The notes under the pieces are model-generated. The model did not search any database. It was not told where the DNA came from and worked only from the letters and a program-made list of their open reading frames with translations. Made by a program: the position numbers and the translations under genes. DNA of 64,000 nt from an uncultured Anaerolineales bacterium. Its GTDB lineage: Bacteria > Chloroflexota > Anaerolineae > B4-G1. The first letter of the stretch is position 1. The number at the start of each line of letters is the position of its first letter. Below, piece by piece: positions 6,583-51,530 of this stretch. The DNA is taken from positions 11,409 through 75,408 of the forward strand of contig CAZHAX010000003.1 in assembly GCA_964530325.1 (NCBI GenBank). The letters run 5' to 3'.

Positions 6583-7275
6583 TCAGGACCCGCCCTTGAG
6601 GTGCCGGACGCCTTCAGCGGTTCCCACCAGCACGTCAGTCGCCAGCCCGATGAACAGCCCGTGGGCCACGATGCCGGCACGCCCGTCGAGCAGGGCGGCC
6701 AGTTCCTCCGGCCTATCGATCGGCTCGAGCCGGCAATCGACGATCAGATTGCCCTCATCCGTGGTGAAGGGCGATCCATCACCCAGTCGGCGCACCTCAG
6801 GCCGGGCGCCGAGCGACTCAAGGTAGGGCAGCTCTGTGCCCAGGGCGAAGGGGATGACCGCAACCGGGAGCCGGAATCGGGTGCCCAGCGCAGGCGAGAG
6901 CTTCGTCTCGTCTACCACAATCACCAGGCGGCGGCTCGCCTGGGCCACCACTTTCTCCCGCAGAAGGGCCCCACCCCCACCCTTAATCAGATTCAGATGG
7001 GGGTCGACCTCATCCGCCCCGTCAATCGTCAGGTCGATGACCGGATGCTCCCCCAGCGTGGTGACTGGGATGCCCAACTGTCCCGCCTCCGCCTCAACGT
7101 GCAGCGAGCAGGGCACACCTAGCACACCGTCCAGCTTCCCTTCGCGGATCAGCGCGCCCAGGCGCCGCAGCGCCATCGTCGCCGTGCTTCCGTGGCCCAG
7201 GCCCACGACCATCCCCGGCCTGACGGACTCAACCGCCTGCTCCGCGGCCAGCCGCTTCAGCTGATCAATCTCCAT
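6583..7275 (-). CDS. rpiA: Ribose-5-phosphate isomerase A
   Basis: 'VVGLGHGSTA' and 'KGGGGALLREKVVA' motifs. The start is taken at the internal Met 'MEIDQLK'; the ORF extends to 7320. Confidence 0.8.
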   Translation of the reverse strand: MEIDQLKRLAAEQAVESVRPGMVVGLGHGSTATMALRRLGALIREGKLDGVLGVPCSLHVEAEAGQLGIPVTTLGEHPVIDLTIDGADEVDPHLNLIKGGGGALLREKVVAQASRRLVIVVDETKLSPALGTRFRLPVAVIPFALGTELPYLESLGARPEVRRLGDGSPFTTDEGNLIVDCRLEPIDRPEELAALLDGRAGIVAHGLFIGLATDVLVGTAEGVRHLKGGS

Positions 7276-7861
7276 TGCCCCAGCCCGGCTTCTCCCGATC
7301 GCCCTCGCGCGCCTGCGCATGCTCCTCTAGCTCCACCCCCAGCCCGCTGACGATCCGCGTGGCGAACGCGAAGTAGGCGGTGATCTGAGCTATGTCCAGT
7401 ATAGCCCGATCGCCAAACCCCTCCTCGCGCAGCGCGCCGACGTCCTCCCGGGTCACCGCCTGCTGGTCGCGCGTCAGTTTGGCGGCATAGTCCAGCATCG
7501 CCCGATCCGCACTGCTCAGCTGCGCCCGGCGGTGGTCCTGCTTCAGCTGACTCACCAGCGCGTCGTCGTCGACCAGTCTGCGGAGAGCCTCCCCGTGATG
7601 CGCTGCTCAGTAGTGGCAGCCGTTGAGTGCCGAGACGACCGTGCCGATCATCTCGCGCTGGTACCTCTTCAGCGGCGACCGGCCGAACATCAGAGTGCGA
7701 TACAGAGCGCGGTGGTCGATCATCGACCGTGGATTGAGGCTGTGCACCTTCATTATGTTCGCCACTCGCCCGGCCAGGCCGGCGCAACACTCGTAGGCGG
7801 CTGCCAACTCCGCTTCCGCCTCCCCCTCGTCTACAACCTCAATCCACGCTGCTTCAGGCAC
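7265..7861 (-). CDS. AhpD/carboxymuconolactone-decarboxylase family protein with an in-frame TGA at the CxxC motif (candidate selenoprotein, or nonsense allele)
   Basis: ORFs 7607..7861 and 7265..7555 are in the same frame. They are separated only by TGA at 7607-7609, which follows 'NGCHY'. Read through, the motif is NGCHY-U/C-AAHH, the AhpD-like CxxC position. Confidence 0.6.
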
Positions 7862-8507
7862 GACTCAGCTCCCCCATTTGCTCCAGGGCTTTCTCAGCTC
7901 CCCCAGCAGCGCGGCCCAGCATCCGCCAGCGGATGATAGTCGCCGCCAGCAGCAGGCCGGAGATCAGCAGTATCGCCGCCGAGAGTGCCCAGGCCGGCGC
8001 GCCGAGAGCCACAAGCGCGCTGTATGCCTCGGCGTACATCATACTCCGCCAACCCAGGAGCGCAAGCGACGTGTGCCAGAAGACGTCCAGCCACGAGAAG
8101 CAGAAGCCTACGACCAGCAGCTGCATCCACCTGCGCCGCGGCGGTCGGGCCCAAAGCGCAGCTTGGAAGATCAGAGCCAGGCCCAGCGTGCTTAGGCTGC
8201 CCGCAGACCGCATCCAGTGATCTGCGATTTCGGGAAGGCTCCTATCCAGCCAGACGCGCCCAAAGTATCCGGAAGCGTGCTCGAAGCGCAGGCTGGGATA
8301 GAGGTCGAGCCCCAAGACGTTGAGGCGTTCCACCCGGGCACCGAAGGCAATGCCCGCCAGTGCGTGGCCGCACTCGTGGATCAGAGTGCCCACCGCGAGG
8401 ACGACAAACGCGATAACGACCGCGCCTGCCACCCAGGCCAGCCGTCCTCCCCAAACCGCCAACCTCTTGCGCAAGGCCATACCCAGGCTAACCGAAATCG
8501 ATCGCAC
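7854..8507 (-). CDS. Membrane protein with an HExGH zinc-metalloprotease motif (M50-like)
   Basis: 'LIHECGHALAG' sits in a predicted TM helix, with several further hydrophobic segments. Confidence 0.45.
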   Translation of the reverse strand: MRSISVSLGMALRKRLAVWGGRLAWVAGAVVIAFVVLAVGTLIHECGHALAGIAFGARVERLNVLGLDLYPSLRFEHASGYFGRVWLDRSLPEIADHWMRSAGSLSTLGLALIFQAALWARPPRRRWMQLLVVGFCFSWLDVFWHTSLALLGWRSMMYAEAYSALVALGAPAWALSAAILLISGLLLAATIIRWRMLGRAAGGAEKALEQMGELSRA

Positions 8508-19338: not shown

Positions 19339-19377
19339 CTGCAGAGCCAGAGCGGCCGCATCCTGAACGAAGGTAGT

Positions 19378-20997
19378 ATGAGCAAGCGCAAAGAAAGCCA
19401 GGTAGCGCCGGGCGAGGCTGAAGAGCCGGAGGCTGAAGACGTGGAGTTCGGCACCGGCGACGAGCCCCAGGAGCTGTTGGCTGACACGGAATCGCTGCTG
19501 AAGGCGGGCAAGCTCCCCGACAAGGAGCCACAGCGCGCCGCAGCCCTTGGCGAACTGGAGGAGCCATCCGCCGACGACCTGGAGGCGATCAAGGACCTGG
19601 CCGTCGCGGCCCGGCAGAGCCCTCCGAAGATCAGCGACGACCCCGTCCGCATGTACCTGCGGGAGATCGGGCGGGTCCCCTTGCTCGAACCGTACGAAGA
19701 GATATGGCTGGCCACGCAGCAGGAGGCAGCTGCGCACTTCCAGGCTGTGCGGACCCGCTTGAGAGAGGCGAGCAAGAAGAGACCGTCCAAGCAGGATCTG
19801 CTTGCGGCGCTCATTGATTCGTTCCGTGACACCTGGTCGAGTGCGATCAAGAGCAGCAAGACGCTCGGCCTGCCGAAGCCTGATCTCAGCGCGCTGGTAG
19901 ACGAAACACTGGCTATCCGAGACGTAACGCTTCCCAACAGGGAATCCTATCTCTACGGCTTCCTCGAGCAGCATGGTTGGTCCGAATCGGAGGACGGCGG
20001 GTGGGAGCAGCTCACCGGGCAGCTCTTCGACACCCTCATCCTGCTGTATCTATTGCCGGATCCTGCTCTGATCACGATCCGCCACGAATGGTCGGCGCGA
20101 CAGAGGCTGCCATCGAAGCAGAAGCTGGCAGCCAGCTCGTCGGCGCGAGGGGACACCGCGCTGTGGGCGTCGCTCGATGAGCAGGCAGCGGTGGCCAAAG
20201 CTACGCTGACACGAGCCAACCTCCGGCTAGTGGTGAACGTGGCCAAGCACTATCTGGGACGAGGCATCTCTTTCCTCGATCTGATCCAGGAGGGCAACAT
20301 AGGCCTCCTGCGGGCCACGCAGAAGTTCGATCATACCAAGGGATTCAAGTTCTCGACCTACGCCACGTGGTGGATTCGCCAGGCAATCAGCAGGGCCATC
20401 GCCGATCAGGCGCGCACGATACGTATCCCCGTGCACATGGTGGACACGATCAATCGGGTGGTCCGGGCACAGCGCCAGAAGGCCCAGGAGCTCGGGCGCG
20501 AGCCCAGGATGGAGGAACTGGTTCTGGAGCTGGATCTGCTAGAGCCTGAGCACAAGAACGCCATTCTGGCAGCGCGTGATGCCGGCGAGCCCCTGTCCCC
20601 CGGACTGGAACGCCGGCTGCGGCGCGCCGCGCTGAAGGTGCAGAGTATCATGCACGTCTCCCAGGAGCCGATGTCGCTGGAGATGCCCGTGGGCGCTGAG
20701 GAGAGCGGCATGCTCGGCGACCTGATCGAAGACGAGACGGTCCCCGGGCCAGCTGACGCTGCCTCCGACCAGCTGCTGAAGGAGCAGGTGCATGCCGTCC
20801 TGGATTCGCTCACCGAGCGCGAGCGGGCAGTTCTGGAGATGCGCTTCGGTCTCAAGGATGGGGAGAGCCACACGCTCGAGGAGGTCGGCAAGGCCTTCGG
20901 AGTGACGCGTGAGCGTGTGCGGCAGATCGAGTCGAAGGCTCTGCGCAAGCTGCGCCACCCCGGCCACCGGCGCAAACTGCGCGATTTCCTCGCTTAG
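19378..20997 (+). CDS. rpoD: RNA polymerase sigma factor RpoD (sigma-70)
   Basis: Region 1.2 '[11 protein letters not shown]', region 2 '[17 protein letters not shown]...[11 protein letters not shown]', and region 4 'LTEREREVL...[20 protein letters not shown]'. Confidence 0.9.
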
Positions 20998-36602: not shown

Positions 36603-37487
36603 ATGGATTCCACCCGCTTTCTCCAGCTCGCCCCGCCACCGCGGCCGGTGCCCATTCCGCTCATCTGTAGGACCCTGCTGGGCATCGGAGGCCGAATGGG
36701 CTCCCTGTTCCTCGGCTTTGGAATGGTCTTTGTGCTCGTCTTCGGCCCCCGGCCAGCGGAGGAGCTGCAGCTCGCACTGTCCGGAGCCACGGCCCGCGGG
36801 ACAGTCTCTACGGCGAGCCCCACCAACACGTCTGTGAACGACGTGACCGTCTGGCGCTACGACTTCACGTTTCGGGCAGCGGACGGCCAGCAGTACGCCG
36901 CTCACAGCTATTCCACCGGCCAGTCGTTTGGGGCCGGCGACCGGGTGCTGATCGAATACGCCACAGCACGCCCGGAGTCGGCGCGCATCGAGAGCACGAG
37001 GCTGTCCGCAGCGCCATACTGGGCCATGGCTCTCATGCTCGGCTTTCCCATCTTCGGCGCGGTTCTCGTCGTTGGCGGAGCGATCCGCGGCGTCAGGCAG
37101 GCAAGCCTGCTGCAGTATGGGAATCTCACAACTGGCCGAGTGCTTTCCACCCAATCGGAAACGGTTGCTATAGAGGGTGTTCCGGTCCTCAGGCACGACT
37201 ACGAATTCCTGGCCTCCGACGGGCAGACCTACTACGGATCGGCCAGGACGCTCTATTCGGGGCTGATCGGCGACGAGCCGCAGGAACCCATCCTCTACGA
37301 CGCCGCCAACCCCAGCCGATCGATGCTCATCGATTCGCTGCCGCTCGGCTACAACCTCGAAGTGGACGGCTACGGGCAGTGGGCCACCCATGAGGGCTGG
37401 CGGTCTATAGCCTGGTGCGCTTTCGCGGCGGTAGGGCTGGCGGTTCTCGCAGGCTACGTCGCGGTCAACCTGGCTGTACTGCTCTAG
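36603..37487 (+). CDS. Membrane protein with two DUF3592-like repeats
   Basis: A TM helix followed by a beta-rich segment, occurring twice; weak family assignment. Confidence 0.45.
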   Translation: MDSTRFLQLAPPPRPVPIPLICRTLLGIGGRMGSLFLGFGMVFVLVFGPRPAEELQLALSGATARGTVSTASPTNTSVNDVTVWRYDFTFRAADGQQYAAHSYSTGQSFGAGDRVLIEYATARPESARIESTRLSAAPYWAMALMLGFPIFGAVLVVGGAIRGVRQASLLQYGNLTTGRVLSTQSETVAIEGVPVLRHDYEFLASDGQTYYGSARTLYSGLIGDEPQEPILYDAANPSRSMLIDSLPLGYNLEVDGYGQWATHEGWRSIAWCAFAAVGLAVLAGYVAVNLAVLL

Positions 37488-37519
37488 CAGGTTGCCTTCT
37501 CCGGCGCAGCCGATCGGGG

Positions 37520-37873
37520 ATGCCTGTGCCACCGACCATCGAGCACTACGAGTTCGGATCGATCACCGTTGACGGCGAGGCGCACGCGGCCGACCTGATC
37601 ATCCTGCCGCAGCGGGTGATTGGCGGCTGGTGGCGGCGCGAAGGGCACGCTCTCCACAGGGAGGATCTAGGGCCCGTGTTCGATGCCCAGCCGGACCTCC
37701 TCGTCGTCGGCACCGGCGCCAGCGGCGCTATGCGTATCCCGGAGGAGACGCGGCGGGCGCTAAAGGAGGCCGGGATTCGCCTCATCGCAGCCCCAACCGC
37801 TGAGGCGGTGGAGACCTACAACGATCTGCGCGGAGGCGAGCGCGTCGCCGCCGCGCTCCACCTCACCTGCTAG
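37520..37873 (+). CDS. Mth938-like (DUF498) domain protein
   Basis: 'DLLVVGTGASG...RLIAAPTAEAVETYN'. Confidence 0.6.
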   Translation: MPVPPTIEHYEFGSITVDGEAHAADLIILPQRVIGGWWRREGHALHREDLGPVFDAQPDLLVVGTGASGAMRIPEETRRALKEAGIRLIAAPTAEAVETYNDLRGGERVAAALHLTC

Positions 37874-37896
37874 CCGTCTGCTACCCACTTGCACAG

Positions 37897-37921
37897 CCAG
37901 GGCAGCTGTGAGCCGCCCTGG
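37897..37921. terminator. Hairpin between the convergent Mth938-like and FW-paralog genes
   Basis: CCAGGGC-N11-GCCCTGG. Confidence 0.35.
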
Positions 37922-37964
37922 CGATTGGCCGGACAGTGCAAGCCAGATCAAGTCCGCAGCCTGG

Positions 37965-39329
37965 CTAGAACGTCACGCAGGTGACGTAGCAGGCGACGTT
38001 CTTCTCCGTCGACTCCAGGTTGAATGCCCAGACCGACCAGGTGTTGGCCGTGGTGATCTGGCTGCTGTAGAACCGGGTGACGCCCGCCTGGCCGACGAAC
38101 CCACCGCCGGTCGCCAGTCCGGTCGGGCAGGTGCAGGTGGCGTTGCCGGAGCCGTGTGGGCCCACGGAGCCCCACACCTTCTCCTCGTACGTCGTGCCGC
38201 TGGTGCCGGAAAGGCAGATCGCGTGTGCTGTCAGCGCGTTTACCGAGCTCTCCGTGTTGTTCGCGTACACCCGCCAGCCGTTCCCGGAGGCCCGCGAGCT
38301 GGCGTAGACGTGCTGGCTGCCGTCGTAGTCGATGCCCCATCCGCCGCCGGTGATGATGCTTCCGGCAGGACACCAGGCCACAGCGCTGGCCCAGCCGCCG
38401 GGCTGCACCTCCACGGTTCGGGCCACCGTCGTGACCGAGCCGGAGACGTTCGTGAGGCAGGCTGCCCGGACGATCAGGACCTGATCTGTGGTCGAGTGAT
38501 TCATGGCCGAGACCTTCCAGCCATCTGCGGTCTTCAAGTTGGCGTGGACCACCATGGACCAGTGGGTCAGGTAGCCGCCGCCGACCACCAGGCTGCCCTC
38601 GGGGCAGACGGCAGTTATCGATCCTGAGTAGCCAGGCGCGATCTGAATCCGCCTCTCATCCCAGACGATGCTGGGGAAGAGAGCGGGCACAACCGTCATC
38701 ACTGGCGGCGCCAGCGTCATCAGAGGTAGGGTGGTAGCCGCAGGCGTGGCTGTTGCGGCCGCCGGCGTAGCCGGCGGTGGCTCCGGGCTGGGCACCACGA
38801 TCTGCACCCAGAACGTGGACCCAAACATCTGCGCCTCGGCCGACCTCATCCGCCAGTCGCCCCGATGCGTCCCGTACGTCGTCGGCGCAGCAAGATCAGC
38901 GGTGACGTCCACCGTGGCCCCCGCCGCCGTCTCCGGCACCGGCACGGACGCCGGCCCGCCCATCTGCTCCCCAGACACGAAGACGAGCTCGAAGCCAGGA
39001 CCCCAGTCGCACGTACCCGTGTTCTGGATTCGCCAACCCTTCACGAAAGCCGCCCCGGGCGCCATCTCCGTGTCGTCCGGTATGGTGATGTCGGCCACGT
39101 AGGACGCGTTCAGCGTGCAGTCCCCCGCCTCCACGTCCTCCTCGGCAGTGGGGGTTGCCGCAGCTTCACCCGCCTCTTCGGCAGTCCCGTCCGGCGTGCG
39201 TGTGGCGTTCTCATCCGCCCCGGCGCCGCCTAAGAGCTCCTGGAGAGGCGCGCAAGCCGGCGCTCCCAGGAGCACGACTGCGAGGACGAGCACTACCACC
39301 ACCCGCGGCCCTCTCCTTCCACTCAACAT
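37965..39329 (-). CDS. Secreted NBR1-type FW domain protein with three C-terminal Cys-bracketed GGG/NGW repeats (paralog A; lacks the Ig-like domain)
   Basis: Signal peptide ending 'LLGAPAC'; FW domain 'CTLNASYVADITIPDDTEMAPGAAFVKGWRIQNTGTCDWGPGFELVFVSG...FGSTFWVQIVV'; a PT linker; repeats 'CPEGSLVVGGGY', 'CPAGSIITGGGW...NGWRVYANN', 'CPTGLATGGGF'. Confidence 0.75.
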   Translation of the reverse strand: MLSGRRGPRVVVVLVLAVVLLGAPACAPLQELLGGAGADENATRTPDGTAEEAGEAAATPTAEEDVEAGDCTLNASYVADITIPDDTEMAPGAAFVKGWRIQNTGTCDWGPGFELVFVSGEQMGGPASVPVPETAAGATVDVTADLAAPTTYGTHRGDWRMRSAEAQMFGSTFWVQIVVPSPEPPPATPAAATATPAATTLPLMTLAPPVMTVVPALFPSIVWDERRIQIAPGYSGSITAVCPEGSLVVGGGYLTHWSMVVHANLKTADGWKVSAMNHSTTDQVLIVRAACLTNVSGSVTTVARTVEVQPGGWASAVAWCPAGSIITGGGWGIDYDGSQHVYASSRASGNGWRVYANNTESSVNALTAHAICLSGTSGTTYEEKVWGSVGPHGSGNATCTCPTGLATGGGFVGQAGVTRFYSSQITTANTWSVWAFNLESTEKNVACYVTCVTF

Positions 39330-39368
39330 CCCGCACCTCCATCAGTCGGTGTAGCTCTCATCCCCATG

Positions 39369-39394
39369 AACGGAGCGTCCGCCCACTTTGTTAC
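39369..39394 (-). promoter_or_regulatory. ECF-sigma-type promoter GTAAC-N17-CGTT upstream of paralog A
   Basis: Conserved in sequence and spacing with the paralog C and D promoters. It lies about 40 nt upstream of the ATG, and a GGAGGTG RBS follows. Confidence 0.5.
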
Positions 39395-39496
39395 GCCAGG
39401 TCGCCTGACATCCTGGGGACAGCACGGCAACAAGCGGGCTCCGGGTTGGCTGAGCCGCCCCGGGTCCCAAGCACTCCGCGCCGGCCCGCTCAGCTC

Positions 39497-41091
39497 CTAC
39501 GGGAACGACAGGCAGATGGCGTAGGCGTTGGGCGGCTTGTCAGTTCCACTGCTGTTCTGGGCAAACACGTTCCACTCGTTGCCCGTGAACAGCTTGGTAG
39601 AGGTGTTGTAGACGTATGCTAGGGTCCCTCCCGCAAACCCGCCCCCGACGGCCAGGCTGCCCTCCGGGCATGTGGCGATCACGCCCCCGTCTCGTGGCCG
39701 CCGACGCTGCCACCGTTGCCGACCTCCGTGGTGCTACCGCTCGTGCCGGACAGACAAGCCGCGTAGACGGCAAACGTCTTGTCCTCGCCGCCCCCGTTCC
39801 TGGCGCGCGCCCCCCAGCCGTTGCCTGACACACGGCTGCCGTAGACCTGCAGGCTGCCATCGTGGTCGGACGCCCATCCGCCGCCGGTGACGACGCTGCC
39901 GGGCGGGCAGGTGACCTCCGGGGTCCCGTGCCATCCCGCCTCCACCGTCACCGAGTAGTGCGCCTCGGTCACGGATCCGCCTGTGTTCGACAGGCAGACA
40001 GCATAGACGTTCAGCAACTTGCTCACGCCAGCGTTGTTCTTGGCCCAGGCTTGCCAGCCATCGCCGTGCTGGGAGTGGCTGTAGACCAGTACGTCGGGAT
40101 GGGCGGCATACCCACCGCTAACGGGCAGGCTGCTGCCGGGGCATTCCACCGTCGCTTGGCCGATGTCGCCCGAGCCGATCGAGATCTGGGAGTAGATCTG
40201 TTCCACCTGCACCGGGAGGAAGGGCGGTATCATAGGCGTGGTCTGCGGCGGCAGCATGGTCATGATCGGCACGTCCAACGTCGGCGTAGCCTCCGGCGCG
40301 GCCGTCGCCGGGCTGGGCACCACGATCTGCACCCAGAACGTGCTGCCGAAAGGCCGCCCCTCGTCGGATCGCATCTGCCAGTCACCGCGGTGCGTGCCAT
40401 ACGCCGTCGGTGCTTGCAGATCGATCGCTAGATCCACCGTCCCGCCGGCGACCGTCTCGGGCAGCGGGATCGAACAGACGCTGCCCATCTGGACCCCCAG
40501 CACGAAGACGAGCTCGAAGCCCGGGCCCCAGTCACACGTGCCGCTGTTCTGGATCCTCCAACTCTTGGTGAACGATGCCCCAGGCGCCATCTCCGTGTCG
40601 TCCGGGATCATGATGTCGGCCACGAACGAGGCGTTCAGAGTGCAGCCTTCCGCCTCCACATCCTCCACCGGCGTCGGGCTGGGCTGGGCCACGCCCTTCC
40701 TCACCCTCAGCGTGATCGTCGCCTATTCCGATGCCTGCCCCTCCGCATCGTAGGCAATCACCGAAACCCGCACCTCGCCCTCTTCCTCGGGCACCCACGA
40801 CTGAACCAGGCGAAAGGTCGTCAGATTCTCTTCCGGAGGCTCCGCCTCCCGCACCACCTCCCCATCGATCAACAACTCCACCCGCGCGATCCCCACGTCC
40901 GACGTCGATACCGACGCGATCTCCACCGTTCGTCCCACTCCCACACGGGCCCCGGTGGCCGGCCTGCTGATCTCCACGCTCGGCCCGCCGTTGGCCAGCA
41001 TGTCCTCCAACGGGGCACAGGCCAACACAGTCAGGAGGAGAAGGAGCACCAGCGATGAGACAGCTCGCACCCCGCTCTTGTGGCGCAGCAT
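39497..41091 (-). pseudogene. Disrupted paralog B of the Big_7-FW-repeat family (in-frame TAG plus C-terminal frameshift)
   Basis: Three ORF pieces (40723..41091, 39679..40704, 39497..39682) are colinear with paralogs C and D. TAG at 40723-40725 replaces a residue in 'ASE-A-ATIT'; there is a frame change near 39680; the upstream -35 GTAAC is lost. Confidence 0.7.
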
Positions 41092-41347
41092 AGCACACCT
41101 CCTTCAGTCAATCGAATGAACGGCCTGTCGGCCCGCTTTCCCAGGGCCTCGCACCGCACGGTCGCTGCTCGTGGGGCTCAAGCCGAGACGAGTGGGGAGT
41201 CCGGATTGTCGCCGTCGTCGGAGTGGAGATGGGCGCGCGGGTCTGGGGGTTGGAAGGTGTGGAACGAGGGGCAGTATCAGCACGAAGGTCGTCGATCACA
41301 CCATCATCAGCTTACGCCGGTATGGACCGTATCGCAAACGAGAACCC

Positions 41348-41377
41348 AGCCGGGGCGGCCCCCGGGCCGCCCCGGCT
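41348..41377 (-). terminator. Perfect GC hairpin downstream of paralog C
   Basis: AGCCGGGGCGGCCC / GGGCCGCCCCGGCT, 14-bp stem. Confidence 0.5.
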
Positions 41378-41424
41378 CCTCACCTCTCCACAGTCCTCTC
41401 GCCCATCATTCCCACCGAGCGCTT

Positions 41425-43053
41425 CTACGGGAACGACAGGCAGACCGCATAGGCGTTGAGACCCTTGCTGGATCCAGAGGAATTCCTGGCATATACGATC
41501 CATTGGTTATCCGAACCCGGCTTGGGCGACGTGTTGTAGACACGCAGGTCGGGCCCTCCCGCGAAACCGCCACCGGCCGCCAGGCCGTCCCCGCTGCAGG
41601 TGGCGACCACATAACCCGTGCCACTGCCGGCAATCGAGCCGCCGCTGCCCTCCTGGGTGGTCGTGCCGGTCGTGCCGGAGAGACAGAGGGCATAGGCCTT
41701 GACATACTTGGTGGACCCTGTGTTGTTCTTCGCATACACCTGCCAGCCGTTGCTGGACTTGGAGCTGTTGTAGACGTGCAGGCTCCCGTCCGCGTACGAG
41801 GCCCATCCTCCGCCGGTGACGACGCTGCCCGCCGGGCAGGCTGCGATCGGGTGGCCGACGCCTCCCGCTGCCACCGCCACCTGCTCGGATACCTGGGTCA
41901 CGCTGCCCGCCGTATTCGAGAGGCACACGGCGTACACGCTCAGAGTCTTGCTCGCGCCGGCGTTGTTCTGGCCGTATACCCGCCAGCCGTTGCCCACCTT
42001 GAAGTGAGTGTACACCAGGACGTCAGGATGGACGGCGTACCCACCACTGACGACCACACTGCCCGAGGGACAGCTCGCGGTCTCCCAGCCGATATCGCCG
42101 GGGTCGATGGAGACCTGCTCTAGCACAGTCGCGACGGACGGTTGGAACAAAGGAAGCGCAGTGATGATGATCGGACCCAGCGTGAAGATCGGCATGAACC
42201 AGGTTGGTGTCGGCCAGGGCGTGTCGGTCGGCAGCGGCGTCGGCGTCACCGTCGGCGTCGCCGTCGGCGGCGCAGGGACGATGATCTGCACTGAGAGAAC
42301 GGCACCGAAGATCTGCCCCTGGTCCGAGCGCAGCCTCCACTCGGCGGAGTGCGTGCCGTAGGTCATCGGCGCCTCCAGCTGCACGCTCAAGTCGACAGTA
42401 TCGCCCGCTGCCGTGGGCGGCACAGGAACGGACGCCGGCCCGCCCATCTGATCGCCGCTGGCGAACACCAGGGTGAACCCGGCACCCCAGTCACAGGTTC
42501 CGCTGTTCTGCACTCGCCAGCCCTTGATGAACGGTGCGCCCGGAGCCACCTCCGTGTCCGCCGGTATCGAGACGTCGGTCACGAAAGCCGCGTTCACCGT
42601 GCAGGCGGCGGGGGCCTCCGTCGGGGTTGGGGTCGGCGTGGCCGCCTCAGCGGCACCGGCTCCGACATTCAGGATCACGGTCGCCTCATCCGACGCCCGC
42701 CCCTCGCTGTCGTAGGCCACCACCGAGATCTCCACTTCACCCTCCGCGTCCGGGAGCCAGGTCTGCACCAGGCGGAACGTGCTCGGATTCCCGGAGGGTG
42801 GTGTGCTCTCCTGCACCACATCGCCGTCCACGAGCAGCTCCACACGTGCTATGCCGGCGTCGGCGGTTGAAGTAGAGGCGATCTCCACCGCTTCCCCGAT
42901 CTCGGCTGTCGCCCCGCTGGTCGGGCTCGTTATCTCTACGCTCGGCCCCAGGTCGACGACCAGCCCCTCCAGGGGCGAGCAGGCGAGTGCCGTGACGAGC
43001 AGCACCAGCACCAGTAGCGAGAAAGCTCTTGTCCTACTCTTGCTGCGCAACAT
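41425..43053 (-). CDS. Secreted Big_7 Ig-like + NBR1-type FW domain protein with three C-terminal GGG/NGW repeats (paralog C)
   Basis: Start at the Met preceded by an AGGAGGTG RBS. Signal peptide 'LLVLVLLVTALAC'; Big_7-like 'VEITSPTSGA...VELLVDGDVV...VVAYDSEG'; FW domain; a PT linker; three repeats ending '...AYAVCLSFP'. Confidence 0.8.
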   Translation of the reverse strand: MLRSKSRTRAFSLLVLVLLVTALACSPLEGLVVDLGPSVEITSPTSGATAEIGEAVEIASTSTADAGIARVELLVDGDVVQESTPPSGNPSTFRLVQTWLPDAEGEVEISVVAYDSEGRASDEATVILNVGAGAAEAATPTPTPTEAPAACTVNAAFVTDVSIPADTEVAPGAPFIKGWRVQNSGTCDWGAGFTLVFASGDQMGGPASVPVPPTAAGDTVDLSVQLEAPMTYGTHSAEWRLRSDQGQIFGAVLSVQIIVPAPPTATPTVTPTPLPTDTPWPTPTWFMPIFTLGPIIITALPLFQPSVATVLEQVSIDPGDIGWETASCPSGSVVVSGGYAVHPDVLVYTHFKVGNGWRVYGQNNAGASKTLSVYAVCLSNTAGSVTQVSEQVAVAAGGVGHPIAACPAGSVVTGGGWASYADGSLHVYNSSKSSNGWQVYAKNNTGSTKYVKAYALCLSGTTGTTTQEGSGGSIAGSGTGYVVATCSGDGLAAGGGFAGGPDLRVYNTSPKPGSDNQWIVYARNSSGSSKGLNAYAVCLSFP

Positions 43054-43094
43054 ACCACACCTCCTGTTGTGACCAAGGTTCACTCATGCTCATG

Positions 43095-43120
43095 AACGGA
43101 ACCTCGGTCCCGGTTGTTAC
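43095..43120 (-). promoter_or_regulatory. ECF-sigma-type promoter GTAAC-N17-CGTT upstream of paralog C
   Basis: TGTAAC...CGTT with the same spacing as paralogs A and D. Confidence 0.5.
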
Positions 43121-43236
43121 ATTGCCCGGCGGAGCCGCCCGGCATCGACGCTGCCGCCGTTATGTCCACACGGTATCCTACGGTTCCAGTATACGACCTG
43201 CGCGCCTCGCTGGCAAGCGAGACCTGGCCGTGGACG

Positions 43237-43274
43237 CAGTGAGCCGGGGTGGCTAGTGCCGCCCCGGCTCACTG
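43237..43274 (-). terminator. Perfect 13-bp-stem hairpin downstream of paralog D
   Basis: CAGTGAGCCGGGG-N12-CCCCGGCTCACTG. Confidence 0.5.
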
Positions 43275-43308
43275 CTCTTGGGCAGGCTTGTGCGTCCCTA
43301 CCTGACGA

Positions 43309-44898
43309 TCAGAAGGTCAGGCAGTCCGCGTAGCAGTAGAAGTTCCTGGAAGAGGTGTCCGTATTCCGACCCCAGTTGCTCCATTGGCCGGAGACGGACA
43401 GGTCCGGGGACGTGATGTAGAGCTTGGCGTACTGGAACGGCCCGGCGAAGCCCCCGCTCACGTTCAGCCCGCTGGAGCAGGAGCACTCGACCTCACCCAC
43501 ACTGCCGGCTCCCAGGCTGATCGAGTTCGTCACCTCGGAAACGGAGCCGGTCGTGCCCTCCAGACAGATCGCCCGCGCTACCACGCCCGAGTTGCCGCTG
43601 CCGGTGTTGAAGGCATAGACCTCCCAGCCGTTGCCGAACTTGGAGCTGTTGTACACGTGCATGTCGCCGGTGGGCAAGACCGCCCAGCCGCCGCCCGTGA
43701 CGACGCTCCCGGCGGGGCACTCGGCCACCGCCTTGCCCCAGTTGCCCGGCGTCACTGAGACGCTGGAGCTCGTGACCATCGATGTAGTACCTGAGACATT
43801 CCTCAGGCAGACCGCGTGCACGGTCATCGCCAGATCGGACCCGCCGTGATTCCAGCCCGCGCCGCGCCAGCCATCGCCGGACTTGTAGTGGCTGTAGACC
43901 TCGACGTTCCAGTGCACGTCGTAGCCGCCGCCGACGACGAGCCCTCCGCCGGGGCATGCGGCGGTGGTCGCCGCCCAGGTGCCGGCCGGCACCGTCACCG
44001 TCGCGCTCACGTGCTGAGTGTACGGCAGGAAGACCATGAATGTGGGGGCGATCATTGTTATGAGCGGCATAGACCAGGTCGGGGTCGGCGTCGGCGTATC
44101 AGCCGGCGTCGGCGTCACCGTAGGCGGCGCGGGAACCACTATCTGGACCCAGAACGTGGAGCCGAACATCTGCGCCTCATCAGACCGGGCTCGCCAGTTG
44201 CCCCGATGCGTGCCGTAGGTCGTAGGAGCTTCCAGCTCAACGCTGACGTCCACGGTGTTTCCGGCGGGGGTTGGTGAAATCGCGACCGAAGCCGGCCCGC
44301 CCATCTGATCCCCGCTGACGAAGACCAGCTCGAAGCCGGGACCCCAATCGCAGGTCCCGCTGTTCTGTATCCTCCATCCCTTCACGAAGGAGGCTCCGGG
44401 CGCAATCTCGGTGTCGTCCGGGATCGTGATATCGGCCACGTAAGAGGCATTCAGCGTGCAGCCCCCGATCTCGACATCCTCCGCCGGCGTCGGCGTCACG
44501 CCGGCCGCGGCTTCGCCGACGAAGATCGTGATCGTTGCCGCCTCGGACGCCCGCCCTTCGACGTCGTAGGCCACCACAGACACCGTCACCTCGCCTTCCG
44601 CCAAGGGGACCCACGCCTGCAGCAGGCGGAAGGTCGGCGGGTTGCCCGCCGGCGGTTCGTCCCGGCGGACCACAGCGCCGTCGACCAGGAGCTCGACCCG
44701 GGCCAGGCCGGCATCTGCGCTGGAGGTGGAAGCGATCTCCAGCGTTTCCCCAACCTGCACCGTGAGCCCACTCGCGGGCCCGGTGATCTCTGTGCTGACC
44801 GTATCCTCTCCCAGAAGCGGCCCGCAGGCCAGAGACGCCAGTAGAACAACCAGCGACGCGCCCCTCGACGCCCGCAACCTTCTCGTCTCACTCGGCAT
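43309..44898 (-). CDS. Secreted Big_7 Ig-like + NBR1-type FW domain protein with three C-terminal GGG/NGW repeats (paralog D)
   Basis: Signal peptide 'LVVLLASLAC'; Big_7-like domain; an FW domain nearly identical to paralog A; a PT linker; repeats 'CPGGGLVVGGGY', 'CPAGSVVTGGGW...NGWEVYAFN', 'CSCSSGLNVSGGF'; 'GAGEVGRY' RBS GAGGAGG. Confidence 0.8.
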   Translation of the reverse strand: MPSETRRLRASRGASLVVLLASLACGPLLGEDTVSTEITGPASGLTVQVGETLEIASTSSADAGLARVELLVDGAVVRRDEPPAGNPPTFRLLQAWVPLAEGEVTVSVVAYDVEGRASEAATITIFVGEAAAGVTPTPAEDVEIGGCTLNASYVADITIPDDTEIAPGASFVKGWRIQNSGTCDWGPGFELVFVSGDQMGGPASVAISPTPAGNTVDVSVELEAPTTYGTHRGNWRARSDEAQMFGSTFWVQIVVPAPPTVTPTPADTPTPTPTWSMPLITMIAPTFMVFLPYTQHVSATVTVPAGTWAATTAACPGGGLVVGGGYDVHWNVEVYSHYKSGDGWRGAGWNHGGSDLAMTVHAVCLRNVSGTTSMVTSSSVSVTPGNWGKAVAECPAGSVVTGGGWAVLPTGDMHVYNSSKFGNGWEVYAFNTGSGNSGVVARAICLEGTTGSVSEVTNSISLGAGSVGEVECSCSSGLNVSGGFAGPFQYAKLYITSPDLSVSGQWSNWGRNTDTSSRNFYCYADCLTF

Positions 44899-44940
44899 TG
44901 TTAGCCTCCTCTATCGATGGGGTTCTCCACCGTCACTCAC

Positions 44941-44976
44941 AACGATTCGCTCGCCGGTCTTGTTACTCGGCCCGGC
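44941..44976 (-). promoter_or_regulatory. ECF-sigma-type promoter GTAAC-N17-CGTT upstream of paralog D
   Basis: GAGTAACAAG...AATCGTT, about 43 nt upstream of the ATG. Confidence 0.5.
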
Positions 44977-45025
44977 GCCGCAGCGCCCTGCTCCGACCAG
45001 CGCACCAGAATTCGCCGTGGCTCTG

Positions 45026-45553
45026 CTAGGTGCCGGGCGACTGCACGCCAACGATCAAGCTACTCCACTCGAGTGCTCTCCACGCCCCGCTCTCATCCCT
45101 CCGCACGCTGACCGGCCTGGCACTCGCCGCCCCTGAGCATGAGGCGAAGACCTTGTACGTGCCAGAGCCCGCGTCCCCGCTGTACTTGTTCGCCGAGAAC
45201 TCCAGCTCGTACGGCAGATCGGGCAGCTCATAGCCATTCTCCGGAGCGGTGCACTTGAAATACGACCTGGGTATGTGCCCTTTGCCCACGATCTGCGATA
45301 GCGCCAGGCGCAGATCGGAGCTGCGTAGCTGCAGCCCATCGTATCCCTGTGCGCCCTCCTCCAGGCGGCTGGAGTCGACGGCCGCGGCCATACATTGCCG
45401 GCCCAGCTCCTCATTCTCCGCCAGCAGCAGCAGGGCAACAACCATGGCCGCCGCGCCGCCCTGCGGCTCTCCGGCAATCCCGTCCCGCATCTTGACGAAT
45501 TCCTCGATCGAACCGGGCATACTGCCGATCCGCACAGGTTTCAGCGTCGTCAT
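45026..45553 (-). CDS. Hypothetical protein
   Basis: 175-aa ORF with an AGGAGGTG RBS. No recognisable motif. Confidence 0.45.
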   Translation of the reverse strand: MTTLKPVRIGSMPGSIEEFVKMRDGIAGEPQGGAAAMVVALLLLAENEELGRQCMAAAVDSSRLEEGAQGYDGLQLRSSDLRLALSQIVGKGHIPRSYFKCTAPENGYELPDLPYELEFSANKYSGDAGSGTYKVFASCSGAASARPVSVRRDESGAWRALEWSSLIVGVQSPGT

Positions 45554-45647
45554 CGCCTGGCACCTCCTGCCTGTTCTGAGCTATTGCCGCGCTGCTCCGC
45601 CACTCCCTGTGCCGAAGGGACACGCCGCAGAGAGACTTTGACGGAGG

Positions 45648-46403
45648 CTAGAAGTCGTATTCCGTGAGGTCCTGGGCTAGCTCCACCGGGCCACCGAACG
45701 CCTCCCCGGCCTCGGTCAGCCAGCGGTCGTACTGCTCTTCGTCCGGCTGATAGTGGATCAGCACCAGCCTACCAACCCCAGCTCGGCGTGCGAGCTCGCC
45801 CGCCTGCGCCGCGCTCGTGTGGCCTGCGGTGCTACTCGCCGCCTCGTGGATTAGGATGTCGGATCCCTCAGCCAGAGCAACGACGGCATCGCACGGTGCC
45901 GTGTCGCTGGAATAGGCTATCGAGCCGCCGCTGCGCTTGTTCTCGAAGCGTAGCCCGACTGTTGGCACGAGGTGCTCCACCGGGCCGGAGGTGATTCGCA
46001 GCCCCTCCGTCTCCACAGCCAGCGCACCTATGTCTTCAGTCAGAGTCTTGTACTCAATCGGAAAGAGCCCCGGCCAGTCCTGCCAGCGGAAGAGGTCCAT
46101 CATGGAATTGAACCTCTCGATTGCGTCAGCAAGGCCGTAGACCTCGAGGGGCTTCTTCCTACCCAGGAGCCAGGCATCCATCAGCAGAATTGGGGCGCCG
46201 CAGACGTGGTCCGGGTGGAAGTGCGTGATGAAGAGCCCTCGCAGATTGCCGAGAGCCAATCCCGCACCGTTGAACCTTACTATCGGATTGTCGGCGCAGT
46301 CGATGAGGAATAGGTCTTGACCCTCCTCCACTGCCAGGTAGGTGTTGGCATGGGCCTCGTCCGGCACCGCCGCCGCGCTTCCCAGAACAATCAGCCTTGT
46401 CAC
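45648..46403 (-). CDS. MBL-fold metallo-hydrolase
   Basis: 'HFHPDH' (HxHxDH) zinc-binding motif. Confidence 0.75.
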   Translation of the reverse strand: MTRLIVLGSAAAVPDEAHANTYLAVEEGQDLFLIDCADNPIVRFNGAGLALGNLRGLFITHFHPDHVCGAPILLMDAWLLGRKKPLEVYGLADAIERFNSMMDLFRWQDWPGLFPIEYKTLTEDIGALAVETEGLRITSGPVEHLVPTVGLRFENKRSGGSIAYSSDTAPCDAVVALAEGSDILIHEAASSTAGHTSAAQAGELARRAGVGRLVLIHYQPDEEQYDRWLTEAGEAFGGPVELAQDLTEYDF

Positions 46404-46410
46404 GCCCGCC

Positions 46411-47916
46411 CTACCCCCCGAAGGCCCGAATCACCAGGGCCGGTGTCAGATGCGCCTCGACTGCAGCGGCGGCCGCCAGCATAGGCAGCACCAGGAACAC
46501 GAAAACCTTCAAGAAGTCGGCCAGCGCCCGCAGCCACGCCTCGCCGACAGCCATGCCCCGAGGAGGTGACATGAAGACAGCTCCCAAGCGGACTGCCATG
46601 GCGGTCGATAGGACCACGGCCGGTATCTCCAGGGCGCCGTGCGGTAGCACACCGGCGGCGAAGAACAGCCACGGGTCGTACCCCATGTTGGCGGACTGGG
46701 CCACAAGGAAGGCCACGACGGCGAGAGGAGCCATCGTCAGCGCTATGGCCAGAGAGCCGAACGAGAACACTGCCAACAGAGCCGCCCCCACCAACACCCG
46801 CAGGTTGTGAGAGAGAATGCCTCCGGTGGTTAACGACAGGACTCCCAGGACACGACTGTCCGAGAAGGAGTCGGCGGAGACGACCTCGTCTCCCAGGAGC
46901 TCGGCCGGCAGGGGGTAGTCGGCGGCGAAGCTCAAGCCAACTAGCACAGCCAGAAGGATTGCCACTACCACGGTGGCCACGGCCAGCCGGGATTCGCGAA
47001 GGACCGCTGGCAGGTGGCGCCGGTAGAGACCGCCCAAGGCCCCCATCCAACGCAGGGCAGCGGGCAGCCGATCCGGGTCTCTGCCGAAGAACCAGGGCTC
47101 CCACTGTAGGTGACGCCAGAACGTGCGCCAGATGTAGCCCAGGTTCAGCTCATCGATCTCGCGACCCAACAGCTCCTCGCGATTGAAGATGTAGATGCCC
47201 ATGCGGACAAGTATCACGTCCGCGACGACAAGGAAGGCCACGATCCACCACAGCGCGTCGTAGTTGCCCCAGAACATCACCAGGGCCTCGCCCTGCGCCA
47301 GGAGCGCCATGGGGATGATGATGAAGCTGGCCAGCAGGTTAGCGGCGCGCACGCTGGTCGTCTGGCTGGACACCACCACCGCACCGCTGACCATAACCAC
47401 GCACTCGGCCGTGGTCAGGACGATGATGAGAACGAACAGCTCCAGCGGGGGCGACCAACCCTCGAAGTAGTATAGGCCAGTCAGGTAGACCCCCACGCCG
47501 AGGTAGGCGGCCAGCAGCGGCGGCACCATCGCTCCCACTGTCTTGCCCACGTAGAGCTCGGCGTCGGACAGAATCGTAGCCAGAAGAGGTTCGAGGCTCT
47601 TTCGCTCCCGCTCGCCGGCGAACGTCTCCAGTGCGATGACCAGCGAGAAGGAGATGGGGAAGAAGCCGACGATCATGAGCAGGAATGGCAGCATCCTCTC
47701 GCTGATGATCGGGGCTCCTCCGTAGCTGGCTACCCATTCAATGGCGCTGTTGGCCACGAACGTCATTATCAACGGGAAGAGTAGAGTGAGCAGCACGATC
47801 GGGATGGCGATGCGCCAATCACGAAGTGAGTCGCGCACCTCGCGGCCGACGAGAGCAAGCACCAGACGCAGCGACTCTGCGATCCCCCCTTCTCGTTGCA
47901 GGGCCTTGGTCGTCAT
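46411..47916 (-). CDS. ABC-2 family permease fused to a SpoIIM/DUF95-like membrane domain
   Basis: N-terminal six-TM ABC-2 permease. The C-terminal half carries 'VLPHGALEIPA', typical of stage II sporulation protein M family domains. Confidence 0.6.
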   Translation of the reverse strand: MTTKALQREGGIAESLRLVLALVGREVRDSLRDWRIAIPIVLLTLLFPLIMTFVANSAIEWVASYGGAPIISERMLPFLLMIVGFFPISFSLVIALETFAGERERKSLEPLLATILSDAELYVGKTVGAMVPPLLAAYLGVGVYLTGLYYFEGWSPPLELFVLIIVLTTAECVVMVSGAVVVSSQTTSVRAANLLASFIIIPMALLAQGEALVMFWGNYDALWWIVAFLVVADVILVRMGIYIFNREELLGREIDELNLGYIWRTFWRHLQWEPWFFGRDPDRLPAALRWMGALGGLYRRHLPAVLRESRLAVATVVVAILLAVLVGLSFAADYPLPAELLGDEVVSADSFSDSRVLGVLSLTTGGILSHNLRVLVGAALLAVFSFGSLAIALTMAPLAVVAFLVAQSANMGYDPWLFFAAGVLPHGALEIPAVVLSTAMAVRLGAVFMSPPRGMAVGEAWLRALADFLKVFVFLVLPMLAAAAAVEAHLTPALVIRAFGG

Positions 47917-47919
47917 CGG

Positions 47920-48831
47920 TTAGGCCTCCACCACACGCAGAAAGACATCTTCCAGGCTGCGTTCTACCTCGCTCAGGGTGACGACCCCTACTCCTTCTCT
48001 CGAGAGCGTCTGAAGCACAGCTGGGTTCGTGTGCGAGGGATTGGGGGTCGAATAAAGTAGCCAATCCGCACCCCGGCCCTCGATCGTCACCAGGTCGGAT
48101 ACCAGATCCACCGCACCGTCTACCGGGCCGGCGAGTCTCAGCTCCATCAGGGGTGGCCCTAGCAGCTGGTCCTTCAGCTCGCCAGAGGTGCCCAGAGCGA
48201 TGATCTCGCCCCTCCGTATGATGGCGATCCGATCCGCGATCGCCTCAGCCTCCGCCAGGTTGTGAGTGCAGATGACCGTCGCCCGGCTCTGGCTGCGCAG
48301 GCTGACGATGGCATCGCGCACGAGCTTGGCGCTGTGGGGATCCATTGCCGAGGTCGGCTCGTCGAGCAGGAGGACCGGCGGATCGTGCAGCATAGCGCGC
48401 ACCAGGGCGATCTTCTGTCTCGCGCCTTTGGAGTACGTGGACAGCCGCCGGTCATAGAGATCAGACATGCCGAAGTAGTCGACGAGCTCCCTGGCCCGCC
48501 GCACTCTCTCGTCGGGATCGATCTGCATCATGCGGCCGAAGAAGTCCAGGTACTCGGCGCCTCGCATGCGCAGATAGAGGCCGGGGTGCTCGGTGAGGAG
48601 CCCGATCCTTCGCCTCACCTCCCGAGGACTCTTGGTCACCCAGTGGCCAGCTACGAGAGCGTCACCGGCCGTGGGGCGGAGGATAGCCCCGAGCATACGA
48701 ACGGTCGTCGTCTTGCCCGCACCGTTCGGACCTAGCAACGCCAGGATCTCGCCCGCGCGTACCGAAAACGTCACCCGGTTGACCGCGGTGAACTCGCCAA
48801 ACCGCTTCGTCAGTCCCTGCAGTTCAATCAT
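47920..48831 (-). CDS. ABC transporter ATP-binding protein
   Basis: Walker A 'GPNGAGKTT', signature 'YSKGARQK', Walker B 'LLLDEPTSAMD', plus a C-terminal extension of about 70 aa. Confidence 0.85.
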   Translation of the reverse strand: MIELQGLTKRFGEFTAVNRVTFSVRAGEILALLGPNGAGKTTTVRMLGAILRPTAGDALVAGHWVTKSPREVRRRIGLLTEHPGLYLRMRGAEYLDFFGRMMQIDPDERVRRARELVDYFGMSDLYDRRLSTYSKGARQKIALVRAMLHDPPVLLLDEPTSAMDPHSAKLVRDAIVSLRSQSRATVICTHNLAEAEAIADRIAIIRRGEIIALGTSGELKDQLLGPPLMELRLAGPVDGAVDLVSDLVTIEGRGADWLLYSTPNPSHTNPAVLQTLSREGVGVVTLSEVERSLEDVFLRVVEA

Positions 48832-49043
48832 CTTCGACGTCCTGCCCGCCGCTGACTCGGGTCCGGCCGGCCCACTTCTTCGCCAGACACCGTAGACGGT
48901 CGCGGGCCGCCCATAGGCCGCCCGCCCCTAGATAAGGATTATACCAATCTTGGCGCCTCATGGCAATGGGTAAAGGGCACCATTGACCGCCTGGCGCGCG
49001 ATATCGTTGGGGATCAGCCGCGAAAGAGGGCGTCTAGCGCCTC

Positions 49044-51131: not shown

Positions 51132-51376
51132 TGCGCGTCCCCCGGATCAAGACCTATAAACGAGACTTTCATAAACAGGCGTTTATAATACCGCAGAATG
51201 CCGATCTGTCAAGTACGCGCCCGAGCCGACGGTCGCCGCACATTCGGCGGACGGCCCTTGGCGAGAGCTGCAGCTTGCGCAGCGGCGTTCCGCTATCAGG
51301 GGAGCGGTTCGACCGGCGGAGCCGCCGCATATCGACGCCGGAGACTGCCACTGATCTCCTGACTCAGCGCACACCT

Positions 51377-51404
51377 TGCTAAGCCTACCGAATAGGGTAT
51401 AATC
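51377..51404 (+). promoter_or_regulatory. Sigma70-type promoter TTGCTA-16-TATAAT for tRNA-Pro
   Basis: TTGCTA at 51377-51382 and TATAAT at 51399-51404, about 10 nt before the tRNA 5' end. Confidence 0.55.
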
Positions 51405-51414
51405 AGCCGCGTCC

Positions 51415-51488
51415 GGGGCGTAGCGCAGTCAGGTAGCGCGCAGCAATCGGGATGCTGAGGCCCGGGGTTCAAGTCCCCGCGCCCCGAC
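51415..51488 (+). tRNA. tRNA-Pro (anticodon CGG)
   Basis: Manual cloverleaf: acceptor CGGGGCG/CGCCCCG, D-arm GCGC-AGTCAGGTA-GCGC, anticodon stem CAGCA/TGCTG with loop AUCGGGA, and T-arm CGGGG-TTCAAGT-CCCCG. No CCA is encoded. Confidence 0.85.
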
Positions 51489-51501
51489 TGAGGCACAGTT
51501 G

Positions 51502-51530
51502 GCCCCCCACTCTGCTCGGGTGGGGGGCCT
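51502..51530 (+). terminator. Terminator hairpin after tRNA-Pro
   Basis: GGCCCCCCAC-N9-GTGGGGGGCC followed by TTCATT. Confidence 0.5.

Follow-up and report, generated by a model that had tools for sequence, protein, structure and literature searches.

Which signal drives the transcription of four tandemly arranged genes for putative surface lipoproteins in an uncultured Anaerolineales bacterium? The genes lie on the minus strand of a 64 kb stretch of contig CAZHAX010000003.1, which was analyzed as a whole and is called the window here. They are paralogs, with D, C, B, and A as the order of their coordinates on that strand; A, C, and D are intact, and B is a pseudogene. Upstream of each intact paralog we find two short blocks, GTAACAA and CGTT. 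Judged by its sequence, this motif is probably a promoter dependent on an extracytoplasmic function (ECF, group 4) sigma factor. The two blocks are almost certainly a real, if fairly ordinary, regulatory signal.

The pattern GTAAC-N17-CGTT matches three times in the window compared with 0.05 matches expected, and none of 100 shuffled sequences reached three. All three matches are on the minus strand, each upstream of an intact paralog, and they carry exactly the sequences that the original prediction had quoted for A, C, and D. The sites and the genes that follow them, with ribosome-binding sites (RBS) and with products in amino acids (aa), are listed here together with the pseudogene.

44941-44966, minus strand: putative promoter of D, with GTAACAA (-35) at 44960-44966, CGTT (-10) at 44941-44944, and a spacer of 17 nucleotides (nt) from GTAAC to CGTT
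43309-44898, minus strand: paralog D, 529 aa, RBS GGAGG at 44905-44909 (Pfam, AlphaFold)
43095-43120, minus strand: putative promoter of C, an exact match, with GTAACAA (-35) at 43114-43120 and CGTT (-10) at 43095-43098
41425-43053, minus strand: paralog C, 542 aa, ATG at 43051-43053, RBS GGAGGTG at 43058-43064 (open reading frame table, Pfam)
39497-41091, minus strand: pseudogene B, with an in-frame TAG at 40720-40722 and a frameshift near 39680
39369-39394, minus strand: putative promoter of A, an exact match, with GTAACAA (-35) at 39388-39394 and CGTT (-10) at 39369-39372
37965-39329, minus strand: paralog A, 454 aa, without a Big_7 domain, RBS GGAGGTG at 39334-39340

C starts with the ATG at 43053 and not with the upstream GTG at 43083 given by the open reading frame tool. 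The 17 nt spacer is exact in all three sites, as had been described, and the distance from the end of CGTT to the ATG is 39 nt for A, 41 nt for C, and 42 nt for D, in agreement with the earlier figure of about 40 nt. A GGAGGTG RBS, which had been claimed for all three genes, is present in A and C, but D has GGAGGCT, a minor inaccuracy. Widening the spacer to N15-19 gave zero extra sites in the window. Allowing two mismatches gave four extra sites there, compared with 3.05 expected by chance, and none of them is promoter-like in position.

The sites of A, C, and D are paralogous and hence not independent, and some similarity upstream of duplicated genes is to be expected. The blocks might therefore be a functionless residue of duplication, or chance matches, with the true promoter elsewhere. 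The surroundings of the blocks have, however, diverged to near-random identity. Outside the 11 motif bases, gapless identity among the three upstream regions is 26-42%, and 13 of 95 columns are invariant, which is near random at 65% GC, compared with 11 of 11 columns in GTAACAA and CGTT. Flanks, spacer, and leader have thus diverged freely, and the two blocks stand out as islands of conservation, more than duplication would have left behind. One candidate for a promoter elsewhere is a sigma-70-like TTGCCA-17-TATACT at 43188-43216 on the minus strand (10 of 12 matches), about 95 nt upstream of the motif of C. It is the only such site in the paralog region, occurs at chance frequency, and may either serve C as a second promoter or be there by chance; no sigma-70-type promoter was found upstream of A or D.

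Further evidence on this point comes from homologues in other genomes. We gathered 79 reference-genome loci by protein similarity only and inspected the upstream DNA of 72 family genes with an N terminus; the closer relatives L136, L140, and L141 were obtained through exact protein look-up. In the nearest clade (L002, L003, L024, and twice in L019), GTAACAA-N15-CGTTACAG begins 58-62 nt upstream of the ATG. The syntenic single-copy orthologue of D in L136 has tGTAACAA-N15-CGTTCATG in the same place as the D site, and L140 and L141 have GTAACAA-N16-CGTTCATG, that is, a spacer of 18 nt compared with 17. Overall, a motif 58-68 nt upstream of the ATG was found in the protein-found homologues L136, L140, L141, L002 (twice), L003, L019 (twice), and L024. 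AA follows GTAAC in 12 of 12 protein-found sites, although the search did not demand it. A homologue from Thermoflexia (L009) carries GTAAC-N17-CGTT farther upstream, at -92. In 15 distant Anaerolineaceae homologues with 24-33% aa identity, a related site, GGAAC(T/C)T with N16/17 after GGAAC and then CGT(C/T), starts at -61 to -66.

Counted together, 23 of the 72 family genes are preceded by a two-block site of the ECF kind whose start falls in an 11 nt interval, compared with about 0.03 expected from the background of the same loci. These loci, 914 kb in all, contain 105 matches to the loose pattern G[TG]AAC-N16-18-CGT[TC]; about 67 are left as background when those that precede family genes or fall within RNase P RNA are set aside. 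The 23 sites share ancestry and do not represent independent events; the retention of a two-block site across such protein divergence nevertheless indicates selection. The blocks persist in orthologues of 44-68% protein identity and in the Thermoflexia homologue. Based on this conservation, we rejected a neutral duplication residue, and we consider it very unlikely that the blocks are residue or chance and the true promoter lies elsewhere.

Among 20 unique promoters, GTAACAA and CGTT are invariant, and information content 5' of GTAAC is at most 0.9 bit, so that conservation stops sharply 5' of the -35 block. Of these 20 sites, 18 have a spacer of 17 nt and two (L140 and L141) have one of 18 nt, and leader length varies by about 10 nt. 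Block spacing thus stays within 16-18 nt independently of the distance to the gene. The conserved AAC of an ECF -35 element and CGT of a -10 element are present in A, C, D, and all 12 protein-found sites. The sites are intergenic and on the coding strand, shortly upstream of the start codon, with no housekeeping promoter in their place.

Known ECF promoters resemble these sites closely. In Bacillus subtilis, SigX-type promoters have the consensus tGtAAC-N17-CGaC, and SigW-type promoters have TGAAAC-N16-CGTA. The sites described here share with them a (T)GTAAC -35 block, a 17 nt spacer, a -10 block that starts with CG, and envelope-related genes downstream, but they belong to an unrelated lineage and have CGTT as the -10 block, where the Bacillus promoters have CGAC or CGTA. 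ECF promoters normally have spacers of 16-18 bp (PMC7776599). Sigma factors of the ECF40 group, among them SigD of M. tuberculosis and C. glutamicum and ShbA of Streptomyces, use GTAAC-N16-18-CGAT (PMC6338062, PMC12019637), and SigE of S. coelicolor uses GGAAC-N17/18-CGTC (PMC6767563). Both are experimentally defined, and the sites described here match them closely in geometry and sequence. ECF40 promoters have the identical -35 GTAAC, often followed by A, the same spacer length, and a -10 block that begins with CG and ends with T, and their targets, as here, encode cell-envelope or secreted proteins (PMC6338062, PMC12019637). By contrast, the -10 block is CGTT, with the GTT core of SigH-type promoters, in 20 of the 20 unique sites, compared with CGAT in ECF40, and the host belongs to Chloroflexota instead of Actinomycetota. 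Moreover, no ECF40 sigma factor, RsdA-like anti-sigma factor, or autoregulated sigma promoter is linked to the sites in the loci searched. Because of their CGTT, the sites are ECF40-like only and not ECF40 promoters. SigE promoters show the same two-block geometry, and the GGAAC...CGTC of the distant Anaerolineaceae is essentially the SigE consensus (PMC6767563). The closest known sites are those of ECF40 (SigD/ShbA) and of the Bacillus SigX type.

A sigma factor of a different kind, either of group 3 or specific to the lineage, might recognize a consensus in Anaerolineae that merely resembles that of ECF sigma factors. The lack of an ECF sigma gene near the promoters in the loci searched is in line with this, and, to our knowledge, the sigma repertoires of Chloroflexota are essentially uncharacterized. 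Known group 3 consensus sequences, such as GTTT-N-GGGTAT for SigB/F and TAAA-N15-GCCGATAA for FliA, do not fit, however. An AAC in the -35 block, a CGT in the -10 block, and 16-18 nt between them are the hallmark of ECF promoters, and the site matches the consensus of ECF40, SigX, and SigE almost base for base (PMC6338062, PMC12019637, PMC6767563). We regard a non-ECF sigma factor as unlikely.

The two blocks might also be the half-sites of an operator that binds a dimeric transcription factor, whether repressor or activator. The sister clade offers a reason to consider this, since 12 of its 14 unique sequences contain (T)GTAAC-N18-GTTAC(A), an inverted repeat of 5-6 bp. This symmetry is absent in the clade of the window, in which the right block is CGTTCATG or CGTTGTG (GTTCA or GTTGT) while GTAACAA is invariant. 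Neither the invariant C of CGTT nor the AA after GTAAC has a symmetric partner, and the GGAAC...CGTC of distant homologues at the same position is not palindromic. In addition, 23 bp from center to center would be unusual for a dimer, and no other promoter is visible for A and D. A palindromic operator was rejected for the clade of the window because the GTTAC right arm is confined to the sister clade, and an operator in general appears quite unlikely.

Partial conservation of the leader, as seen in the sister clade, would also be expected if the blocks belonged to a cis-acting RNA element (a riboswitch, a thermometer, or the target of a small RNA) within a longer 5' leader. RNAalifold, however, predicted zero base pairs across 18 leaders from both clades, and Rfam matched nothing in the region and only one tRNA in the whole window. 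The complementarity of GTAAC and GTTAC is lost in the clade of the window. A leader RNA element was rejected based on the missing RNAalifold pairs and Rfam matches and is extremely unlikely.

The motif could finally have been the type of promoter that this organism uses for housekeeping genes. We rejected this because the tRNA gene at 51414-51487 on the plus strand (region 51376-51529) has a TTGCTA-16-TATAAT promoter, along with a terminator hairpin with a 12 bp stem, and further canonical TTGACA/TATAAT promoters serve other genes in the window. The ECF-type promoter that had been predicted for each intact paralog is thus supported by its conserved position in relatives, its fixed spacing, its sharp boundary, the canonical form of the housekeeping promoters, and the match to the literature, and we consider it the probable explanation of the motif.

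Several results weigh against an ECF promoter. We searched all open reading frames of the window and of 141 loci with RpoE, SigW, and SigR by phmmer and hmmsearch, a procedure that detects known ECF sigma factors reciprocally at E values of 1e-24 or better. It returned no ECF sigma gene for the 64 kb window, the 79 homologue loci (±6 kb), or the other loci fetched, with the exception of the unrelated L107. Neither the window nor the fetched homologue loci contained the expected autoregulated sigma operon with the same motif. Members of a regulon outside the family were also not clearly found: in the DNA scanned, the motif precedes only family genes or genes for proteins that share their domains or leader, with L108 as a possible exception. 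Many other family members, in L004-L008 and in the Brevefilum group, lack the motif. The whole leader is fairly conserved in the sister clade, and conservation within that clade alone is therefore weak evidence. Upstream of more distant family members, there are either TTGACA/TATAAT-like promoters or no recognizable signals.

The window contains a single sigma gene, at 19339-20997 on the plus strand, which encodes a primary-type sigma-70 of 552 aa with regions 1.2, 2, 3, and 4. As the search located no ECF sigma gene here or next to the homologues, the cognate sigma factor would have to be encoded elsewhere in the genome. The exception L107 is an unrelated metagenome contig of low GC content, Firmicutes-like in character, with an ECF sigma gene at 6585-7166 followed by a DUF4367 anti-sigma gene at 7159-7908. 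Directly after this pair, from 7931, comes GTAACAA-N15-CGTT and then a gene for a secreted protein of 142 aa (region 6585-8423). This site is likely a genuine ECF promoter of the same sequence and serves as an incidental illustration. L093 is a fragment homologous to L107.

How far the set of targets extends was addressed with a metagenome scan using the pattern GTAACAA-N15-CGTT-N18-40-GGAGGTG-N3-7-ATG, which returned 55 DNA stretches. Sixteen matches, in 15 of these stretches, are followed by genes whose products fit the family profile; they all lie on contigs of about 60% GC. Some matches precede partial sets of domains, namely three repeats only in L106 and Big_7 with other domains in L135. 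One additional match, in L102, is followed by a family-like leader that is cut by the contig end. The remaining matches mostly lie before open reading frames too short to be genes, and their number fits a rough estimate of a few tens by chance. In 280 kb of DNA of this clade, 33 of 34 GTAAC-N16-18-CGTT sites are directly upstream of family genes. The family had been proposed to be the regulon of an ECF sigma factor; in the DNA scanned, no wider regulon became apparent beyond the family and proteins that share its domains or leader, with L108 at most. In L108 (1680-2457, minus strand), a contig of similar appearance, GTAACAAAGGGGGCGATCCCCACGTTATAG precedes a gene for a secreted protein of 234 aa that has a family-like signal peptide and matches neither Pfam nor the family profile. 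This protein may belong to the regulon without belonging to the family, or it could result from shuffling of a promoter, leader, and signal-peptide module.

From the motif as observed, its conservation, the constraints on its position, and the lack of competing signals, we infer how these genes may be expressed. D, C, and A would each form a transcription unit of their own under an ECF-type alternative sigma promoter, with sigma domain 4 reading GTAACAA as the -35 element and sigma domain 2 reading CGTT as the -10 element, which follows GTAAC after 17 nt, or after 18 nt in some relatives. The predicted start site is a few bases past CGTT and would produce a leader of about 30-35 nt with a strong Shine-Dalgarno sequence. 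Synthesis of the lipoproteins would be switched on once the ECF sigma factor, encoded elsewhere, is freed from an inhibitor. Envelope stress as the inducing condition, as had been suggested, is a guess that draws on the secreted nature of the products. The whole unit of promoter, leader, coding sequence, and hairpin may have been copied in a tandem expansion from the ancestral D orthologue, after which selection would have kept only the two sigma-contact blocks, the RBS, and the coding sequence, and B would have lost its -35 block.

Very little is known about regulation in Anaerolineae or, more broadly, in uncultured Chloroflexota, and the motif provides a well-supported candidate for an alternative-sigma promoter in this class. 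It would be the first concrete alternative-sigma motif for this lipoprotein family in Anaerolineae, although as a concept it is an ordinary ECF promoter and unsurprising. It would also tie a widespread, tandemly expanding, and uncharacterized family of surface lipoproteins to ECF-type signaling. The pattern GTAACAA-N15/16-CGTT is concrete enough for locating the cognate sigma factor and the rest of its regulon in a complete genome. The contrast between GGAAC/CGTC and GTAAC/CGTT in different clades may constitute a natural case of divergence in promoter specificity.

A more far-reaching possibility, which we consider doubtful at present, is that throughout the class Anaerolineae a single, distantly encoded ECF sigma factor is dedicated to this multi-copy family of lipoproteins with Big_7, NBR1-like, and PCSK9-C-terminal-domain-like modules. 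The sigma factor and its promoter would then have co-evolved between clades from GGAAC/CGTC to GTAAC/CGTT, and the promoter, leader, and signal-peptide module would have been reused before other architectures, as in L106, L135, and possibly L108. If this were true, the family would offer a natural series in which ECF specificity drifts alongside its targets.

The products themselves are predicted to be secreted or lipid-anchored multi-domain proteins. According to Pfam, the domains of the paralogs are a lipoprotein-type signal peptide, a Big_7 immunoglobulin-like domain, an NBR1-like N_BRCA1_IG domain, and three C-terminal Cys-containing repeats, which match PF27479 (YjdH) faintly; among the domain sets described, only that of A lacks Big_7. 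An AlphaFold model of D has a mean predicted local distance difference test score (pLDDT) of 83. In this model, the middle domain is of the FW type found in NBR1 and ILRUN (6vhi, template modeling score [TM-score] 0.93), and residues ~290-529, which comprise the three repeats, resemble the three-module, resistin-like C-terminal domain of PCSK9 (7anq_A, target-normalized TM-score 0.68). There are many homologues, and every source name that comes with them is from Anaerolineae or Chloroflexota.

The history of the locus can be read from L136, the protein of which is 68% identical to D. L136 has one family gene, compared with four copies within 37400-49000 of the window. Both share the gene order CDP-alcohol phosphatidyltransferase, ABC ATPase, ABC2/SpoIIM fusion, metallo-beta-lactamase fold, DUF6935, and family gene, with DUF498 downstream. 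Because L136 is syntenic with a single family gene, D is taken as the ancestral copy, and C, B, and A as a recent tandem expansion specific to the lineage. A terminator scan found no canonical intrinsic terminators after the paralogs. GC-rich hairpins without U-tracts are nonetheless present after D, C, and A.

43236-43275, minus strand: GC-rich hairpin after D with an 18 bp stem, 34-73 nt past the stop codon, a putative terminator between the D and C units
41348-41377, minus strand: GC-rich hairpin after C with a perfect 14 bp stem, a putative terminator
37896-37922, minus strand: GC-rich hairpin after A with a 12 bp stem, a putative terminator

A hairpin after each of D, C, and A fits separate transcription units that were duplicated as whole modules. 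The hairpins after C and D have a common core, GAGCCGGGGCGGC / GCCGCCCCGGCTC, and may represent either a small repeat element or copies of a terminator that has no U-tract.

The pseudogene B is disabled by its in-frame TAG and by the frameshift, which lies ahead of the last repeat and leaves open reading frames at 39679-40704 and 39497-39682 in different frames. A gapless alignment with the upstream region of A, and a MAFFT alignment, place the decayed promoter as follows.

41119-41144, minus strand: decayed promoter of B, with CTGGGAA (41138-41144) in place of GTAACAA and CGTT retained at 41119-41122

In the gapless alignment, B also retains its RBS and ATG despite the lost -35 block. The loss of the promoter in the pseudogene was correctly described to the extent that GTAAC is gone and CGTT is kept, but it is a single anecdote, and a deleted copy in L002 keeps an intact promoter. 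This third family copy of L002 (9625-10203, with the same sequence in L105) consists of an N-terminal stub of 52 codons and a C-terminal remnant of 90 aa, and it retains a perfect GTAACAAAGTGG...CGTTACAG promoter at 9625. Decay of the promoter and decay of the coding sequence are thus not tightly coupled. The neighboring copy in L002, which starts at 7797, has GTATAATAAGG instead of GTAACAAGG.

Two further observations concern the upstream regions of more distant homologues. In the Brevefilum group (L011, L012, L013, L018, L025, L055, and others), a separate motif, approximately AAC(A/C)AACCTTnnCTTTTCT(A/G)A, lies about 85-100 nt upstream of the family gene and fits neither ECF nor sigma-70 spacing. 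Just downstream of rnpB, the gene for RNase P RNA, is where the family gene is located in many genomes of Anaerolineaceae and Brevefilum (L052 5547-5886, L074 5575-5905, and L011 4897-5275); no rnpB adjoins the paralogs of the window. In L052 and L074, the GGAAC -35 block starts 1-2 nt past the 3' end of the RNase P RNA match.

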